A stretch of DNA of 17,248 nt from the IMG/VR virus record IMGVR_UViG_2778261313_000007; one strand, 5' to 3'. The notes beneath the pieces were generated by a model. That model saw only the letters and a list, made by a program, of their open reading frames with translations. It had not been told where the DNA came from and did not search any database. The stretch's first letter is position 1, and every line of letters begins with the position of its first letter. The position numbers and the translations under genes were made by a program. This DNA is from a virus. Its lineage: Duplodnaviria > Heunggongvirae > Uroviricota > Caudoviricetes. Below are positions 6,969-17,248 of this stretch, piece by piece.

Positions 6969-6983
6969 GGGGCATTGCGCCCC
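6969..6983 (-). other. GC-only hairpin between portal stop and capsid RBS
   Basis: GGGGC-ATTGC-GCCCC inverted repeat inside the 42-nt portal-capsid spacer. Confidence 0.3.
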
Positions 6984-9092: not shown

Positions 9093-10997
9093 TTAGAACG
9101 ATGTTACCCAGCTACGGCCTCTATTTGGGCGTCTGGCGATGTTTTGACGTTGTGGTCGTGTGATTGGCTTAGTTTCTTCGATTTGCTCGTCAGATTGCGT
9201 TTCAGGAGCTTTTACGGGTTCTTCTGGTTCACGGTTCAAACTATCTTTGATGGCTTCGAGTTTTTCCCATGACATTTTATTGAGTACATGGCGAGAAGCA
9301 GCATAGGAATAAGCCAGGCAGTCGAGAGCCTCGTTTCGTTGCTGACCAACTTTTACCCAACGTGTGGTATTACCCTGCCGTTTCAACTGTTCAGAAAGCA
9401 ATTGCTCGCAATAGTCATCAGGAACGTCACCAATCTGGAAGACAGTATGAGGATCGCCATCTCTCAAGTTCCGGTTAATCATTTCACGGATCATCGTCTT
9501 AAGGTTGTTTACGCCCAGAATTTTGAGAGTAAAACCGCCCGTTCTTGTGTCCTTAGCCGGAAGGATTGGAGCATCAGCATTACTTGCGCCTTTAATGGCG
9601 CATAGGTTTTGCCACCTAGTGCAAAAACGGTAGATCACGTTTGTAGCTCGTCCGTTCGATGAGTCCACGAAAGCAGATAGCATCGGGATTCGTTCACCGG
9701 ATCGGGTATAGAATTTCGCTTTCAGGAAGTTATAAAGCTGGTCATATGCTGGTGATTCGTGGCGTTCGCAGTTCACATCATAGAATGATCGGTGATCAAC
9801 TACGCATATCCCCTTACGAGAGATACCCAGCAAGGTAGATTCCAGACGGTCTTTTTGCTGGTCAACTCCACCTACCAGAGCCAGTACATCATCAGGAATA
9901 TTGTCTAGGCTAATATCAGTTTTCAGCGTTTCCAGTTCGTCGGCTGTGCGATCTTCGTTAAGATCATCGAAGGTTTCACCGAGGACTGTATTGTAGAACG
10001 TTGCTAGTGACATATTCGCGTAGCTATCAGCAAAGTCCACCACACACGCACGGATAGAACTAAACGGAGACATAAGGCGGTTAGCATGAAAACCGATTAC
10101 TTCCGCATTTGGTTCCGTAGCAATCCATTCACCTTGAGCAACAGCACGTAGGCGATCCCCTTCTGTCCAATCAGTTTCACATGACGGGCAACGATAAACG
10201 GCAGTATCTGGATTCGGCAGTGATTTACAGTTAATCGTATGCCAATCAAAGAAAACTCTACTCCATTCCATTACGTGCTTGTGTCCGCAATGCTGGCAAA
10301 CGACATGATATTTTCTCTTATCCGAGAGTTCCCATTGTTGGTTAATCGCCCCATCACGAGCGGTTGGAGTGGAAGCAATTACGATCCTTGCATCTTCCCC
10401 GAAAGTGGTTGCGCGTTGTTCCGCTAGCTGGATCGGGTTCCCTTCGTCTGACTCATCAGCCGCATCAACTTCATCAAGAATAATCAAAGGGAGTGTTTTA
10501 CCGCGAAGATGTGACGGACTATTCAACGACATGAAATACATAAACGATCCGTTACGAAGCTGAATAATCGATGAGTTGTTAACGGCATTGCGATCTGATT
10601 TGTCGGTGATCATCGCCTTTAATTCTGGTGTTGCCTCTAATACTGGCTTCACCTTACCAGCGATCCAGCTATTCAACTCGCGGACATTCGATTGCAACAC
10701 CCCGATATTAGTAGGGTTACTCGCGATCCGATGGAAGATAATTCCGTTAAGAATCATGGTCTTACCCAACTGCGCCGAACATTTAAACACAATTTTTCTA
10801 CGGTCTTCGGTGATCGCGTCCATCATTCCACGTTGGAAGGGATGCAATTTAATTAGCGATCCGGCTTTAACACCATCGGTCGCAACTACATTAGCCTCTA
10901 CCCATTCGCTAGGTTTCATGGTTTTAGGTGGACGAATTGCAGCAGAGATATTTTTGAGAATCTTTTTTAATTTTGCCTTATTAGAAATCAGTTTCAT
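9093..10997 (-). CDS. terL: terminase large subunit (GpA-like)
   Basis: ATG 10995-10997 with GAGGGT SD, stop TAA 9093-9095. 634 aa. Deviant Walker A KCSAQLGKT, Walker B LPLIILDEVDA, Cys pair motifs CQHCGH...CPSC (zinc-ribbon-like), and a C-terminal acidic nuclease-like region. First gene of the structural operon. Confidence 0.85.
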   Translation of the reverse strand: MKLISNKAKLKKILKNISAAIRPPKTMKPSEWVEANVVATDGVKAGSLIKLHPFQRGMMDAITEDRRKIVFKCSAQLGKTMILNGIIFHRIASNPTNIGVLQSNVRELNSWIAGKVKPVLEATPELKAMITDKSDRNAVNNSSIIQLRNGSFMYFMSLNSPSHLRGKTLPLIILDEVDAADESDEGNPIQLAEQRATTFGEDARIVIASTPTARDGAINQQWELSDKRKYHVVCQHCGHKHVMEWSRVFFDWHTINCKSLPNPDTAVYRCPSCETDWTEGDRLRAVAQGEWIATEPNAEVIGFHANRLMSPFSSIRACVVDFADSYANMSLATFYNTVLGETFDDLNEDRTADELETLKTDISLDNIPDDVLALVGGVDQQKDRLESTLLGISRKGICVVDHRSFYDVNCERHESPAYDQLYNFLKAKFYTRSGERIPMLSAFVDSSNGRATNVIYRFCTRWQNLCAIKGASNADAPILPAKDTRTGGFTLKILGVNNLKTMIREMINRNLRDGDPHTVFQIGDVPDDYCEQLLSEQLKRQGNTTRWVKVGQQRNEALDCLAYSYAASRHVLNKMSWEKLEAIKDSLNREPEEPVKAPETQSDEQIEETKPITRPQRQNIARRPNRGRSWVTSF

Positions 10998-12997: not shown

Positions 12998-13144
12998 TCA
13001 TTTAGATTCAGCAATCGCGCGATCAATTTCTTCTTGAATGCGACGCTGGCGTTCATGGAAGTCAACCATTGAGAAATTCAGGTTTGGGGTCCACGGTTTG
13101 CGGTTCGGGGTTTTACGTCCATCAATTTTCTTAGTAGTGTTCAT
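12998..13144 (-). CDS. small basic protein (48 aa), first gene of the rha operon
   Basis: Below the ORF-track size cutoff. ATG 13142-13144 preceded by AAAGAGGA SD. Protein MNTTKKIDGRKTPNRKPWTPNLNFSMVDFHERQRRIQEEIDRAIAESK. Sits directly downstream of a TTGACA-17-TATGAT promoter with palindromic operator. Confidence 0.35.
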   Translation of the reverse strand: MNTTKKIDGRKTPNRKPWTPNLNFSMVDFHERQRRIQEEIDRAIAESK

Positions 13145-13266: not shown

Positions 13267-13734
13267 TTACAGCATATCTAAGCCTTCGTCGTAACCGTAG
13301 AAGCCATTCTGAGAAGAAAAACAGATTGGTGCGTAGTCGTCGTCATCTTCGTCTTGTTCATCTTCTTCTGGGGCTTCCTGAGCGGTTTCTTTGCCGTAGT
13401 TAAACATTGCTTCATCCAGTTCATAGACAGTAACGAAGCTACCCAGGTCAATGTCACCGGAACGGACTTCAAACGGAAGATCATCACGAACAATAATTGC
13501 TGGTAGATCCTGGTACTTTAAGCGTTCTTCATCGGTGAAGACGTTAACAACAATGGTCGGCTTCTTATTACGGTAAAACGCATACCATGCACTAGAGAAA
13601 TGGGATTCATCAGAGTTGAAAAGGATGTTATAACCACGTTCACGGAACATCTTCATTAACTTGTCATTGTGGAAGCTATCAGAATCCAGACCCAGAAGGA
13701 TAAAAGGAGTAGTGGTAGTCATCTTGTGGTTCAT
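13267..13734 (-). CDS. hypothetical protein with strongly acidic C-terminal tail
   Basis: ATG 13732-13734 with AGAGGA SD. 155 aa. C-terminal EAPEEDEQDEDDDDYAPICF... resembles the acidic tails of SSB-like or DNA-mimic proteins. First gene leftward of the large control region. Confidence 0.55.
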   Translation of the reverse strand: MNHKMTTTTPFILLGLDSDSFHNDKLMKMFRERGYNILFNSDESHFSSAWYAFYRNKKPTIVVNVFTDEERLKYQDLPAIIVRDDLPFEVRSGDIDLGSFVTVYELDEAMFNYGKETAQEAPEEDEQDEDDDDYAPICFSSQNGFYGYDEGLDML

Positions 13735-13934
13735 AGTGGAAATCCTCTAAAAGAAAGTGAATCAATCTAATATTATTTATAAAGAGAAAATTCTTGTTAT
13801 TATGAAAGGTGATTGTATTCAGTCGGGCAAAGCCCTCCTTCATAGATTTTGAATAAATCATCATCAAAACGAAGAAGTATCTTTAGAATATAAGAATCTT
13901 TCTTTTGGAGAAATAATAATCAGGAAGCAATTTG

Positions 13935-13963
13935 GCAACCGAAGGTTGCAATCCCGAAGGGAT
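13935..13963 (-). other. tandem UUCG-type hairpins
   Basis: Two adjacent inverted repeats: GCAACC-GAA-GGTTGC (13935-13949) and ATCCC-GAA-GGGAT (13951-13963). On the minus strand both read as C(UUCG)G tetraloop hairpins. Confidence 0.4.
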
Positions 13964-14089
13964 AACCAATACCTTTCTAGAAAGTGATTGTTACTCACTT
14001 CGTTCGTTTACTAGAATCAGTTAGTAACTAGTATTAAATCCCTTTCTGAGAAAATCCTTTCAAAAGCGAGTGAACGCCGTAGGTGTGAA

Positions 14090-14169
14090 CGTGAGCGAAG
14101 CGAACTATCCAATCCCTTTCGAATCCTGCTTGCAGGTCTTAGAAGGTGTTGATGGGCGCTTCGCGCACG
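14090..14169. repeat. extended imperfect dyad symmetry centred on a CCTGC-TT-GCAGG palindrome
   Basis: Arms CGTGAGCGAAGCG (14090-14102) and CGCTTCGCGCACG (14157-14169) are reverse complements with one mismatch. The midpoint coincides with the palindrome at 14125-14136. Partial symmetry extends out to about 14073-14180. Confidence 0.6.
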
Positions 14170-14310
14170 GCTACGCCGTATTCTTTTTGCGAGATCTTTC
14201 TTGAACGTAGTGAGAGAAAACGAGCAAAAAGGAGAACGTTAGTTCGAATTTTATATTCTATGGTCTGTGTGGTGAAATGTCTTTCAAGATCATACACTTA
14301 TGAGATTGAA

Positions 14311-14407
14311 GTGTAGGGTTAGTGTAGGTGTGTAGGTGTTATAGTGTAGGTTTACTGGCTAGTGTAGTGTAGGCCAATCCCTTTAAAGCGTAGGTTTGTA
14401 GTGTAGG
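14311..14407. repeat. cluster of seven direct GTGTAGG(T) repeats (iteron-like)
   Basis: Six exact GTGTAGG copies starting at 14311, 14322, 14330, 14344, 14367 and 14401, plus the variant GCGTAGG at 14388. All in the same orientation, 8-23 bp apart, immediately left of an AT-rich tract. Confidence 0.7.
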
Positions 14408-14413
14408 TTTTTC

Positions 14414-14430
14414 ATCAAAAATTTTGATAG
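14414..14430. repeat. 15-bp palindrome ATCAAAAATTTTGAT (operator-like), copy 1
   Basis: Perfect palindrome at 14414-14428. The 15-mer CAAAAATTTTGATAG (14416-14430) recurs exactly at 14565-14579. Confidence 0.6.
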
Positions 14431-14515
14431 AAAATTCTTGTATATTATTTAACCAGAAAATCACCAAAAACCGCTGTAAATGCATGATTTAAAAAGAATT
14501 ATCAAAAGGTCGTCG

Positions 14516-14524
14516 TGCTATAAT
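14516..14524 (+). promoter_or_regulatory. extended -10 promoter candidate
   Basis: TGcTATAAT (TG at 14516-14517, TATAAT at 14519-14524). The -35 is weak. Confidence 0.4.
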
Positions 14525-14564
14525 AGGTTATAAAGGTTGATAATCGTTATCCGCCATTTTCACA

Positions 14565-14579
14565 CAAAAATTTTGATAG
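14565..14579. repeat. copy 2 of the CAAAAATTTTGATAG element
   Basis: Exact 15-nt direct repeat of 14416-14430, lying about 25 bp upstream of the -35 of the strong plus-strand promoter. Confidence 0.6.
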
Positions 14580-14604
14580 TCATTTCTCGCTTAGATCAAG
14601 TGTA

Positions 14605-14633
14605 TTGACAACTATCAAGGATTATTTTATACT
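14605..14633 (+). promoter_or_regulatory. near-consensus sigma70 promoter
   Basis: TTGACA (14605-14610), a 17-nt spacer, then TATACT (14628-14633), directed toward the 14977-16529 genes. Confidence 0.6.
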
Positions 14634-14921
14634 TTTTCTCGTTGGTAGGGGTTGAAATTTTCGAAACAATCCCCATATTGATGATACGCAAGATTTTTTC
14701 GTGTATAAATACATGCATGAAAATGATTGTTCACTTCTGAAAATCCCCTGATTCACTGTTAATTCATACAGCACTGGCTAAACATACAGTACTTATTCGA
14801 TTGAATAATGTACGAATTGATTAATTATTAATCTTCTCTTTAGCAATTCGTGCTCCCACTGATCGGATATACAGTGGTTTTACAGGGTTTTTCGAAAAAC
14901 ATTTTATAAATAGAATTGTTC

Positions 14922-14941
14922 AGAGCAAAAAGCTCTTTTTT
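14922..14941 (+). terminator. weak hairpin plus T-run just upstream of the 14977 RBS (attenuator or leader terminator candidate)
   Basis: AGAGC-AAAAA-GCTCT followed by five to six T residues. Short AU-rich stem, so low confidence. Confidence 0.3.
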
Positions 14942-14976
14942 AAGAAATCATTATTCCAGATTTAGGAGGATATAAG

Positions 14977-15159
14977 ATGGCACGACCTGTTAAGTTCACT
15001 CGTGAAATCGTTTTAGAAATGGCAAAGCGTTATTTTGAACTGACACCTGATGTAGTGATGGGTGAATGGTTTAAAGGTGAAGGTATTGATCAATCAACCT
15101 TCCACAAACTCTTAAAGAAGTATGACATTAAAGTAAAGATTACCGCCGAGGTCTGGTAA
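14977..15159 (+). CDS. small DNA-binding protein (HTH-like), paralog of 11715..11942
   Basis: ATG 14977 preceded by AGGAGGA SD. 60 aa. N-terminal ARPVKF and C-terminal GIDQSTFHKLLKKYDIK align with the other two HTH-like proteins. Confidence 0.5.
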   Translation: MARPVKFTREIVLEMAKRYFELTPDVVMGEWFKGEGIDQSTFHKLLKKYDIKVKITAEVW

Positions 15160-15203
15160 TAACCTTTCACTGAGAATTATATGATGGCTTTAAAAATAAA
15201 AAA

Positions 15204-15231
15204 GCCTCCCTGTTGGCGCAAGGAGGCTTTT
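15204..15231 (+). terminator. terminator-like hairpin between 14977..15159 and the acidic-protein gene
   Basis: GCCTCC (15204-15209), a 12-nt loop, GGAGGC (15222-15227), then TTTT. Confidence 0.45.
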
Positions 15232-15275
15232 GATATGAACAATTAAACTAACACAGAGCATTCAGGAGTATTTAT

Positions 15276-16271
15276 ATGAAAAATTCTAAGCGCATTACCT
15301 TCAACATGTTTATTAAATCCAACGGCAAACTGAACATCACTGTCATGGAAGGTAAAGCAAGCAAACAAGACAAATCCTTTGAAGTAGTATCAGGTAAGAC
15401 TCTGACCGAAATGCGTCAGAATGCTGGCATCAAAGACGGTGCTGAATGGCAGATCACCAACCGTTTCGACAAACGTCACGTTAAACCTACACTGGTAGAA
15501 GGTGAATCCGTTTATTGCTTCGCTCGTGCTGTTAAAGCTGATGAAACTTACTATCTGGCTGTTGTTAAAACTGCTTCCGGCTTCCGTGCTGTAATGCATC
15601 ACAAGAGCAAACGTAACGAATACGGCGTAGAGACCCAGGAAGTCGCAAAACGCTTCCGTACTGTTGCTACCGAATCCACTGTAAAGGATGTTTCTGGTAC
15701 TGTTAACACCGCTAAAGGCGGTTCCTTCTACAACCACGCATTACAGGTTACTTCCTCCTTCTTCTGCAAAAAAGAAGCACAGAAAGAAGTTTCTCCGGTA
15801 GTAGTTGAAGAAGTTAAAGAAGAAGTTGCAGTGGTTGAATATTCCGAAGTTGAAGCACTGAAAGCACGCATCGCTGAACTGGAAGCTGAAAACGCATCTC
15901 TGAAAGCTGAACTGGCAGCACAGGAAACCACTTTCGAAGTAGCAGCGGTTGAAGTTGAAGCAGTTGAAGAAAAATCCATTGATGAAGAACTGGAAGAACT
16001 CCTTAACTATCGCTGGGGTGTTGTTGCAGAAGTAGAACAAGAAGTTGCTCCGGTAGTTGTTCCGGTTGAAGTTGAAGAAGAATCCGCACCTGTTACTAAC
16101 TTTGAATCCCTGCGCAATAACTTTATGGCTAAATTCAAAACCACTTGGGAAGATACCGAAGAAGAACAAGAAGAGATTGAAGTAAACGAAGACGAGATCC
16201 GCGAAGCACAGATGGCACTGCATGACGCTATCTACGACACCAACTACAGCGCCTACGCATACGCAGCTTAA
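15276..16271 (+). CDS. two-domain protein: basic N-terminal domain plus acidic coiled-coil C-terminal half; high-expression codon usage
   Basis: ATG 15276 with AGGAG SD. 331 aa. The C-terminal half is dominated by E/V/A with heptad-like EALKARIAELEAENASLKAELAAQE. Codons are strongly biased to CTG/CGT/GGT/GCT/TTC/AAC, unlike the rest of the window. Confidence 0.65.
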   Translation: MKNSKRITFNMFIKSNGKLNITVMEGKASKQDKSFEVVSGKTLTEMRQNAGIKDGAEWQITNRFDKRHVKPTLVEGESVYCFARAVKADETYYLAVVKTASGFRAVMHHKSKRNEYGVETQEVAKRFRTVATESTVKDVSGTVNTAKGGSFYNHALQVTSSFFCKKEAQKEVSPVVVEEVKEEVAVVEYSEVEALKARIAELEAENASLKAELAAQETTFEVAAVEVEAVEEKSIDEELEELLNYRWGVVAEVEQEVAPVVVPVEVEEESAPVTNFESLRNNFMAKFKTTWEDTEEEQEEIEVNEDEIREAQMALHDAIYDTNYSAYAYAA

Positions 16272-16286
16272 TAGAGAGGTGAATTT

Positions 16287-16529
16287 ATGATGAATCAAAA
16301 CAAAGAATTTCTGGGTAATCTGATGTTAGAAATTACCAAAATGAAAGAAAGAATGGTAGCGATGGAATCAGAGATTAAAACACTTAAAGCTGATAATAAG
16401 GCGTTGAGAAAGTCCTTAAAGCTGATTGATGAGACTAATGCGGTTATGATGGATCATGTATTCCCTGAGTGGCGAAATGAAACTAAACCTACACAACATA
16501 AGAAACTTACACTTCGAATTGTTGCATAA
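16287..16529 (+). CDS. small coiled-coil protein
   Basis: ATG 16287 (tandem ATG ATG) preceded by GAGAGGTGA. 80 aa, helical and charged (KERMVAMESEIKTLKADNKALRKSLK). Stop TAA 16527-16529 directly followed by a hairpin. Confidence 0.45.
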   Translation: MMNQNKEFLGNLMLEITKMKERMVAMESEIKTLKADNKALRKSLKLIDETNAVMMDHVFPEWRNETKPTQHKKLTLRIVA

Positions 16530-16552
16530 AAAAAGGGACTCCGAAGAGTCCC
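16528..16552 (-). terminator. rho-independent terminator (minus strand; may also act on plus-strand transcripts)
   Basis: Minus-strand RNA GGGACUC-UUCG-GAGUCCC followed by U7 (plus-strand A-run 16528-16534). Lies directly after the stop of the plus-strand gene 16287..16529. Confidence 0.65.
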
Positions 16553-16630
16553 TAGTAAGTTTAGGTTAGGTTTGCACAACAAAGATGAGGTTATAATGAA
16601 CATAATGCCACATTATTCTTTAAAGCCAGA

Positions 16631-16653
16631 AAAATAACCGCCCCGAAGGGCGG
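16631..16653 (-). terminator. second minus-strand terminator
   Basis: Minus-strand RNA CCGCCC-UUCG-GGGCGG followed by UUAUUUUUC. Confidence 0.5.
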
Positions 16654-16799
16654 GAGGATTAACACTCAATCTATACTTGTTATGTTTTTATGTTGTATGA
16701 TCACTGACTATGAAAACACTGTTTTAATGGCTTTTAATCGGGAATCCTCAAAGAAGATCCCCTGTTAATAACCATAAGGAGAAAAGGCAGATTACACTA

Positions 16800-16973
16800 T
16801 TATTTAGTATCCTTTTTACAGCAACTAAAAAGAATAAACAAAAAGAAGCATACCCAGCCGTAAGGCGTACCGATTAGAAATTTGAAAAACACCACCAGCG
16901 ATATAAAAATCAATTTAATGCCAGCGACGATAGTCAAAAACAGCAGAGTAGCAAAGTAGACAAAAAGATCCAT
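16800..16973 (-). CDS. small hydrophobic membrane peptide (57 aa)
   Basis: Below the ORF-track cutoff. ATG 16971-16973 with AGAGGA SD 7 nt upstream. MDLFVYFATLLFLTIVAGIKLIFISLVVFFKFLIGTPYGWVCFFLFILFSCCKKDTK, predicted two transmembrane helices with a charged C-terminus. Confidence 0.3.
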   Translation of the reverse strand: MDLFVYFATLLFLTIVAGIKLIFISLVVFFKFLIGTPYGWVCFFLFILFSCCKKDTK

Positions 16974-17026
16974 AGATAATCCTCTTTGAAAACGACCATC
17001 ATCTATAGTTCAATTCATCGATTTAA

Positions 17027-17128
17027 TTAATGATACTTGAAAGCGTTACACAAAGTAGAAATGCCAATATGTGCCAGTGAATATACGATAGTTAATCCTA
17101 CAGCCAGATAAATCAAAAATTCAACCAT
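17027..17128 (-). CDS. small hydrophobic membrane peptide (33 aa)
   Basis: Below the ORF-track cutoff. ATG 17126-17128 with GAGGAT SD 6 nt upstream. MVEFLIYLAVGLTIVYSLAHIGISTLCNAFKYH, a single predicted transmembrane helix. Confidence 0.25.
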   Translation of the reverse strand: MVEFLIYLAVGLTIVYSLAHIGISTLCNAFKYH

Positions 17129-17140
17129 AGGTAAATCCTC

Positions 17141-17186
17141 AAATAAGAAAAAGGTTAGCGGGGGATGTTCTCCCATAAGCGCTAAC
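17141..17186 (-). terminator. hairpin plus U-rich tract upstream of the 33-aa peptide gene
   Basis: GTTAGCG ... CGCTAAC 7-bp stem (17154-17186) enclosing a GGGA/TCCC inner stem. On the minus strand it is followed by CUUUUUCUUAUUU. Confidence 0.35.
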
Positions 17187-17248
17187 TTAAGGGTTGTGGT
17201 ATTACGCCTGATATGATTTAACGTGCCGATGAATTACTCTCACGATAA

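Follow-up and report, generated by a model that had tools for sequence, protein, structure and literature searches.

Near one end of a 17,248-nucleotide (nt) stretch of viral DNA (Caudoviricetes; IMG/VR record IMGVR_UViG_2778261313_000007; the whole stretch is called the window below), two very short open reading frames (ORFs) follow one another on the minus strand, and we judge it highly probable that both are real genes, translated into membrane peptides. ORF1 (17128..17027, minus strand) encodes 33 amino acids (aa), MVEFLIYLAVGLTIVYSLAHIGISTLCNAFKYH, with one predicted transmembrane helix and the C-terminal tail NAFKYH. ORF2 (16973..16800, minus strand) encodes 57 aa, MDLFVYFATLLFLTIVAGIKLIFISLVVFFKFLIGTPYGWVCFFLFILFSCCKKDTK, with a helix-break-helix build, two membrane segments, a turn at GTPYG, and the tail KKDTK. 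They are new and unclassified, but of a kind well known among phage genes, and are carried by a temperate Escherichia coli prophage of ~35 kb. As for what the pair does, a role in lysis timing, holin- or antiholin-like, is weakly favored over superinfection exclusion, as a possibility rather than a probability.

Both starts carry strong, well-spaced Shine–Dalgarno (SD) sequences, as a preliminary description made from the letters of this DNA had pointed out: GAGGA at 17136..17140 (minus strand), 7 nt from the ATG of ORF1, and AGAGGA at 16980..16985 (minus strand), 6 nt from the ATG of ORF2, neither of which varies in the aligned copies. Such signals are rare in the window, where a properly spaced 5-mer SD precedes only 4 of 110 ATG-started frames of 25-70 aa. 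ORF1 and ORF2 account for two of these, and the other two are small genes annotated in relatives (14977-15159 and 12998-13144); the second is a minus-strand ORF of 48 aa with a strong SD, which falls under the 60-aa ORF cutoff and is listed as a hypothetical protein in the relative L002 (4995-5141). In the complete copy of a related prophage, GAGGA-N4-9-ATG occurs eight times, at five annotated starts, at ORF1 and ORF2, and once elsewhere. The starts of all 37 annotated genes of the prophage in strain H2 (L032) revealed two ribosome-binding dialects: (A)AGGGG(G)T, used by most structural and lysis genes, and GAGGA(T), used by the gene upstream of ORF1 (called terS-like below, after the terminase small subunit), by some early-region and accessory genes, and by ORF1 and ORF2. 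The SD of ORF1 shares the GAGGAT form with the terS-like gene and with genes of 155 and 60 aa. An indel (GCTTAACC vs. GCTAACC) lying 5' of this SD shifts the upstream frame between strains and spares the 33-aa ORF, which fixes the start of ORF1 at 17128. A 49-aa extension with its ATG at 17176 begins within the end of an insertion sequence (IS) and is thus an artefact of that insertion.

The two frames are conserved in relatives, the point on which the preliminary description had made its case depend. We read 23 copies, taken from E. coli genomes and from contigs in IMG/VR: ORF2 was intact in every one, with no stop codon or frameshift, and ORF1 was intact in 22. The exception was a 1-nt deletion in E. 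coli EC42405 (L011, CP043414), a copy that may be decaying or may contain a sequencing error; its ORF2 also carries the nonsynonymous changes L26M, V41G, and T56A. When every variable site was counted once, ORF1 had 8 synonymous vs. 3 nonsynonymous sites (expected synonymous fraction, 0.27; p = 0.002) and ORF2 had 12 vs. 10 (p = 0.007). This bias was absent from the other frames, bar one antisense frame of ORF2 that shares wobble positions. Since divergence is low (at least 95% identity), these selection tests are of modest power. The exact sequence of ORF1 is present in 422 public contigs and that of ORF2 in at least 1,000, and the same gene, of 183-185 aa, precedes ORF2 in each of the eight public contexts shown. 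ORF2 is also intact within a heavily decayed prophage remnant (L045). Homologues of ORF2 were found only as clusters at 95% identity or more, and a comparison with 1.84 billion representative sequences returned nothing further, save one low-complexity match. In some records, depositors had named the ORFs "Uncharacterised protein" or "putative membrane protein"; the Prokaryotic Genome Annotation Pipeline (PGAP) called neither in any RefSeq genome inspected.

Both products are strongly hydrophobic, with a grand average of hydropathy (GRAVY) of 1.21 for ORF1 and 1.56 for ORF2, which bears out the earlier remark that they are made of transmembrane-type residues. Hydropathy gave one membrane segment in ORF1 and two in ORF2, and the AlphaFold2 model of ORF2 (mean predicted local distance difference test score, 80) contains a helix at residues 2-35, a break at Pro37, and a second helix at 37-55. 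On hydropathy and this model, both ORFs are predicted to encode inner-membrane proteins. Their C-terminal tails are basic and 5-6 residues long.

We then compared the proteins with known families. No usable match to ORF1, ORF2, or the three-helix proteins described below was found in Pfam, PHROGs, NCBIfam, or PADLOC. The holin family models of Pfam, PHROGs, and NCBIfam gave no match at expectation (E) values up to 10. In the search for exclusion or defense homology, PADLOC returned nothing for either ORF, and PHROGs returned nothing for ORF2 and only chance-level matches for ORF1. Neither ORF matched the toxin families Hok/Gef, Ldr, TisB, Ibs, or ShoB. Rfam, applied to 13700-17248, yielded one chance U2 match and nothing else, and the search of the AlphaFold2 models against BFVD found no fold match and was uninformative. 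Given that no family, defense system, toxin, RNA family, or fold was matched, genomic context is the sole usable clue to function. Of the roles that the preliminary description had listed, holin or antiholin and superinfection exclusion found no family match and are weighed below on context, and type I toxin is poorly supported.

The window matches prophages in E. coli chromosomes, and against the collection of isolated phages it found no match except for a tail-fiber segment. The copy in strain H2 (CP028733), ~35 kb long, is inserted in hicB; a literature search for this prophage by its hicB integration returned nothing relevant. Read from one end, it contains a large serine recombinase gene, the lysis region, the tail, head, and portal genes, a gpA-type large terminase gene, a short region of early appearance that encodes a Rha-family regulator, a 1.2-kb ORF-free stretch, three plus-strand genes, the two small ORFs, a 184-aa gene on the strand of the ORFs, and a terminal LprI-family gene. 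The 184-aa gene, immediately 5' of ORF1, matched PHROG 57 (terminase small subunit; E = 1.5e-11). Because this one PHROG match was joined by none from Pfam, NCBIfam, or PDB sequences, we call the gene terS-like only. Its protein had no tblastn match among isolated phages, and the large terminase showed at most 43% identity to anything among them, so that no annotated relative could be used. The terS-like gene stands ~6 kb from the gpA-type large terminase gene (window 9093-10997 vs. L002 9273-9827), and the intervening DNA holds early or regulatory genes in mixed directions, a layout unusual for lambda-type packaging.

A simple consensus scan detected no sigma-70-like site on the minus strand from 5' of the terS-like gene through ORF2. 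What precedes ORF1 in the window is an IS junction laid over an intercistronic hairpin, and ORF1 and ORF2 therefore look like distal cistrons rather than a self-contained unit. We infer that they belong to the terS-like transcription unit and would be co-transcribed with that gene.

The hairpin is of a type that recurs in this prophage. Its residual half is at 17153..17174 (minus strand; GGGAGAACATCCCCCGCTAACC), where a native G5-N7-C5 hairpin served as the IS target and was partly duplicated. IS-free relatives read GGGGGAGAACATCCCCCGC(T)TAACC at the hairpin site, and their uninterrupted site runs GGGGGAGAACATCCCCC, then GCTTAACC, with a T run only after that. The hairpin stands ~35 nt from the ATG of ORF1. 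Its T run begins 8 nt past the stem, which is why the terminator scan does not call it. Hairpins of the form GGGG-N6/7-CCCC number three in the prophage vs. 0.31 expected (GGGG-N7-CCCC at L032 21297-21311, 28688-28702, and 38857-38871; the portal/capsid one is at window 6969-6983), and all three fall between minus-strand cistrons, namely tail fiber/tail tube, portal/capsid, and terS/ORF1. Since portal and capsid are presumably co-transcribed, we read this class of hairpin as intercistronic and not as terminating.

In the window, the hairpin is interrupted by the left end (terminal inverted repeat) of an IS421/IS186-type element of the IS4 family (~17175..17248, plus strand, with a boundary that may shift by 1-2 G), and the window stops inside this element. 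The last ~95 bases match the IS421 end in 916 plasmid records and at thousands of places in E. coli chromosomes. In L001, where the IS sits in another allele of this hairpin and both IS junctions could be read (L001 9200-10560), the IS421 transposase is annotated next, on the plus strand. PGAP names this transposase "IS4-like element IS421 family," and the element is written IS186/IS421 in at least one paper (PMC12844343). The IS186 target has been published as GGGG(N6/N7)CCCC (PMC5009759), and the empty site GGGGGAGAACATCCCCC fits it, the core being duplicated on insertion. The IS end GTTAGCGCTTATGG happens to be similar to the phage sequence GGTCAACGTCTACGG that it displaced. The preliminary description had placed a hairpin terminator at 17141-17186, upstream of the ORFs. 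This claim did not stand, because the stem pairs GTTAGCG of the IS with CGCTAAC of the phage and is a chimera created by the insertion.

The IS lies ~45 nt upstream of the ATG of ORF1 and cuts the pair off from the terS-like gene and its promoter, so that in this copy the ORFs are probably silent or reliant on transcription exiting the IS; publications searched for an outward-facing IS186 promoter yielded nothing relevant. IS421 upstream of the ORFs recurs in other strains. At least two of the insertions are independent, since they lie in different hairpin alleles, and the repeated strikes on the same hairpin mark it as a recurrent IS186 hot spot. Depending on the strain, insertions at this spot may turn the two ORFs off or on. 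Each of the late-gene hairpins is a perfect IS186 target, and the lineage therefore offers several IS186 landing sites.

On the downstream side, both terminators that the preliminary description had proposed were recovered by the terminator scan. T1 (16629..16653, minus strand; stem 16653-16638) consists of CCGCCC-TTCG-GGGCGG followed by TTATTTTTC. T2 (16526..16553, minus strand; stem 16553-16534) consists of AGGGACTC-TTCG-GAGTCCCT followed by T7, and it abuts the stop codon of a convergent plus-strand gene at 16287..16529. In relatives, T1 shows a compensatory C-G to U-A change and UUCG, GAAG, or GAAA tetraloops, and T2 has a variant stem, GGGAGTC/GACTCCC, as read by eye. A further conserved hairpin of 10 bp, with no U tract, occupies the 3' untranslated region (16740..16762, minus strand). 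In 16 sequences, 100% of its cells were paired, two pairs were altered on both sides (C-G to U-A and U-A to C-G), and an alternative allele carried a GAAA tetraloop. Taking this hairpin and T1 (16638-16653) together across 16 relatives, 99.6% of cells formed standard pairs and three pairs changed on both sides; when the partners were slid by one to three columns, pairing dropped to 43%-72%.

All three hairpins are held by a noncoding module of ~270 nt (16530..16799, minus strand). It was matched in 63 of 5,426 complete E. coli genomes, ~35 of which match this part alone, and it is kept in all relatives while the genes on either flank vary. Between the terminators, an ~80-nt stretch (about 16554-16628), ending in T2, is near-invariant; it could be a small RNA, and no promoter was found for it.

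The DNA flanked by the upstream hairpin on one side and by the downstream module on the other forms an exchangeable slot. In about 35 other E. coli genomes and in several IMG/VR contigs, the hairpin and the module are shared, and the slot is occupied by a single gene for a protein of 92-94 aa with three predicted helices. This protein occurs in at least three subtypes in sister E. coli/Shigella prophages (clusters P0007, P0008, P0011, P0017, and P0021), and both types of cassette are confined to E. coli/Shigella. It resembles the pair in total size (92-94 vs. 90 aa), in helix number (three vs. one plus two), and in a C terminus of the form ...K-x-TK, and differs from it in being the product of one gene instead of two and in showing no significant sequence similarity. 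In the relatives that were read, which were not all of them, the slot always held a total of about 90 aa and three helices.

We considered whether ORF1 and ORF2 might have arisen by fission of a three-helix gene, an idea prompted by collinear motifs (MVEFLIYL vs. MATFLTYL and FVYFATL vs. FVAFASL), and rejected it for want of significant similarity. BLASTP gave E = 9.7, shuffle tests gave p = 0.02-0.6, and two family hidden Markov models (HMMs) gave p = 0.04-0.97. The program hhalign assigned a probability of 0.8% and aligned only the last ten residues, which lie within the shared flank. With no significant similarity by BLASTP, shuffling, HMM, or hhalign, the two cassettes are positional and topological analogues and not demonstrable homologues. 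Since the slot in sister phages holds one unrelated three-helix protein, the pair is probably its functional equivalent in two chains.

These observations can be assembled into a tentative account of the pair as a timer of lysis. In the intact phage, the unit would run from the terS-like gene through the G5-N7-C5 hairpin, ORF1, ORF2, and the 3' hairpin to the two terminators. As no promoter of its own was detected, the pair would be produced along with the terS-like gene, in the lytic phase. Late in growth, the two peptides would accumulate in the cytoplasmic membrane and govern its permeability, working as a holin/antiholin-like pair that sets the time of lysis for a cytoplasmic M15 endolysin. 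This endolysin is a 117-aa M15-type peptidase (PHROG 894, E = 1.7e-45; L032 9437-9790) with no signal sequence. Neither of its immediate neighbors contains a membrane segment, and no holin or spanin family was recognized in that region (L032 9247-11338). Outside the slot, hydrophobic stretches were noted in just three small proteins of the prophage: one of 92 aa, a weakly hydrophobic one of 56 aa, and the product of an unannotated 40-aa ORF. That the slot was filled in every relative read also speaks for a role of this kind.

In several respects the pair is like known holins (lambda S and P2 Y; class II S21; Ms6 Gp4/Gp5), which are small phage inner-membrane proteins of one to three helices with a basic C terminus, are highly diverse, and are swapped as cassettes; expression of the pair, too, would be late. 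A holin gene next to a terminase gene has a precedent in phage T7: its small terminase gene, 18, is bracketed by the genes for the holin (17.5) and the spanins (18.5/18.7), at a long distance from gene 3.5, which encodes the lysin. Unlike those holins, the pair sits away from the endolysin, has very short tails and no dual-start motif, is extremely hydrophobic in ORF2, and matches no family.

A number of points weigh against a role in lysis, or against the steps that lead to it. The ORFs (L032 38495-38823) are not beside the endolysin and belong to another transcription unit, at a distance of ~29 kb on the prophage map and ~5.5 kb across the attachment site on a circular map. Other proteins could be the holin: in the late operon, the genes for the weakly hydrophobic 56-aa protein and for the 92-aa one, which has an N-terminal helix and a coiled coil, precede the endolysin gene by ~1-1.6 kb. 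The hydrophilic C-terminal tails are shorter than the typical charged tail of a holin, and a GRAVY of 1.56 is unusually high for one. The ORFs follow the GAGGAT dialect of early and accessory genes and not the GGGGT dialect of structural and lysis genes. Holin models found no match even at permissive thresholds, the terS-like label comes from a single database, the co-transcription step is drawn from sequence, and one ORF1 copy is frameshifted. A bolder version, in which the slot after the terS-like gene encodes the missing holin of this lineage and this holin exists in two interchangeable forms, a three-helix chain or a one-helix plus a two-helix chain, is decidedly unlikely. If true, it would amount to a split holin with built-in two-component timing, encoded with a packaging-like gene and away from the endolysin.

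It is also possible, if on the unlikely side, that the peptides are superinfection-exclusion or defense-type accessory ("moron-like") proteins, which would be lodged in the lysogen's inner membrane and bar the entry of phage DNA or protect or alter the host. An arms race would then explain the variation of the slot, which swaps nonhomologous cassettes between conserved flanks. Its position would also suit such genes, near the prophage end and beside the gene for an LprI-family secreted protein with its own promoter-like site, as would the strong terminators downstream, a guanine-plus-cytosine content somewhat lower than elsewhere (0.36 in the ORF region vs. about 0.42), and the dialect shared with accessory genes. 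Both cassette types are orphans limited to E. coli/Shigella, and ORF2 has stayed intact in the decayed remnant. Judged as a moron, the cassette is replaced in some relatives (two classes between conserved flanks) and is followed by terminators, and no promoter was found. The lack of a minus-strand promoter-like site for lysogenic expression, as judged by simple consensus matching, speaks against exclusion, and the upstream hairpin is of the late-operon intercistronic kind, which indicates expression in the lytic phase. Neither PADLOC nor the PHROG exclusion families gave a match. Moreover, a slot that is always filled to the same size and helix number, in those relatives that were read, fits a required function better. 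Known exclusion proteins (T4 Imm, P22 SieA/SieB, and HK97 gp15) are likewise small inner-membrane proteins of variable accessory loci with orphan-like sequences; the pair differs from them in its link to a packaging-like gene, in having no lysogenic promoter that we could find, and in matching none of them by sequence or through PADLOC.

Less likely still is some other role for small membrane proteins, such as modulating, as MgrB, AcrZ, or MgtS do, a host membrane transporter, a sensor, or the envelope, or helping with phage assembly or the passage of DNA at the membrane. Small regulatory membrane proteins of bacteria are typically of this size and of such one- and two-helix builds, and such a role would agree with purifying selection on proteins that match no family and with their constant linkage to the terS-like gene. 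No specific partner or target is indicated, however, and the fact that an unrelated three-helix protein can take the place of the cassette points to a membrane activity of a generic sort, not to one particular protein partner.

That the ORFs have no function, being chance frames in a noncoding spacer or untranslated, decaying remnants (for example, of a broken three-helix gene), is improbable. Such a view could call on the empty PGAP annotation of this region in all RefSeq genomes inspected, the frameshifted ORF1 copy, the low divergence that limits the selection tests, and the several strains that tolerate an IS immediately upstream. It is countered by two strong, well-spaced SDs in the phage's own dialect, by a synonymous bias specific to these frames, by the uniformly open ORF2, and by the fact that any relation to the three-helix family is confined to the last few codons, in the shared flank.

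Finally, we regard it as very improbable that the peptides are type I toxins that stabilize the prophage under restraint by an antisense or nearby small RNA, since their size and hydrophobicity, the conserved hairpin-bearing module directly downstream, and two weak plus-strand promoter-like sites (16659-16686 and 16882-16910) are outweighed by the accompaniment of that module to unrelated cassettes, which means that it cannot be an antisense RNA specific to ORF1/ORF2, by plus-strand sites no more frequent than chance (2 vs. 3.8 expected in shuffled sequence, one of the two being absent from L002), by the lack of a plus-strand terminator in the scan, of a promoter of their own (ORF1 begins close behind the upstream hairpin), and of a match to the known toxin families or to an Rfam antitoxin RNA. 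The search for an antisense promoter that the preliminary description had advised thus gave none above chance. Like the pair, type I toxins (Hok/Gef, Ldr, TisB, Ibs, ShoB, ZorO, and DinQ) are hydrophobic peptides of 19-60 aa and often prophage-borne; they differ in having a cognate antisense or trans RNA, their own promoter, and an SD-hiding leader, features that we did not find here, where two tandem peptides stand behind a terS-like gene.

If translated, ORF1 and ORF2 add two members to the very small membrane proteins of phages, a large class that has been little explored. Both are skipped by standard RefSeq annotation, in a lineage that is present in more than 1,000 public E. coli contigs, pathogenic serotypes included, that has no close isolated relative, and that has no recognizable holin beside its endolysin. 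The slot comes naturally in a one-chain and a two-chain form, and comparing the two could tell how proteins of this kind assemble. The interest is modest, and nothing here should greatly surprise a phage biologist.

Two further features of the window deserve mention. No ORF reaches 60 aa in the stretch at 13735-14976 (1.2 kb), which has no annotation in relatives. Repeats are clustered in it, with GTAGGTGT / GTGTAGGTTT at 14079-14093 and 14324-14410 and CAAAAATTTTGATAG present twice; the stretch may serve as an origin or as an array of operators. Toward the other end, part of the tail-fiber gene (372-2203) shows 74-85% DNA identity to gp37, the distal long tail fiber gene, of virulent T4-like phages, among them RB49, Phi1, and JSE. 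This similarity suggests that a receptor-binding module was exchanged between the temperate prophage and T-even-type phages.

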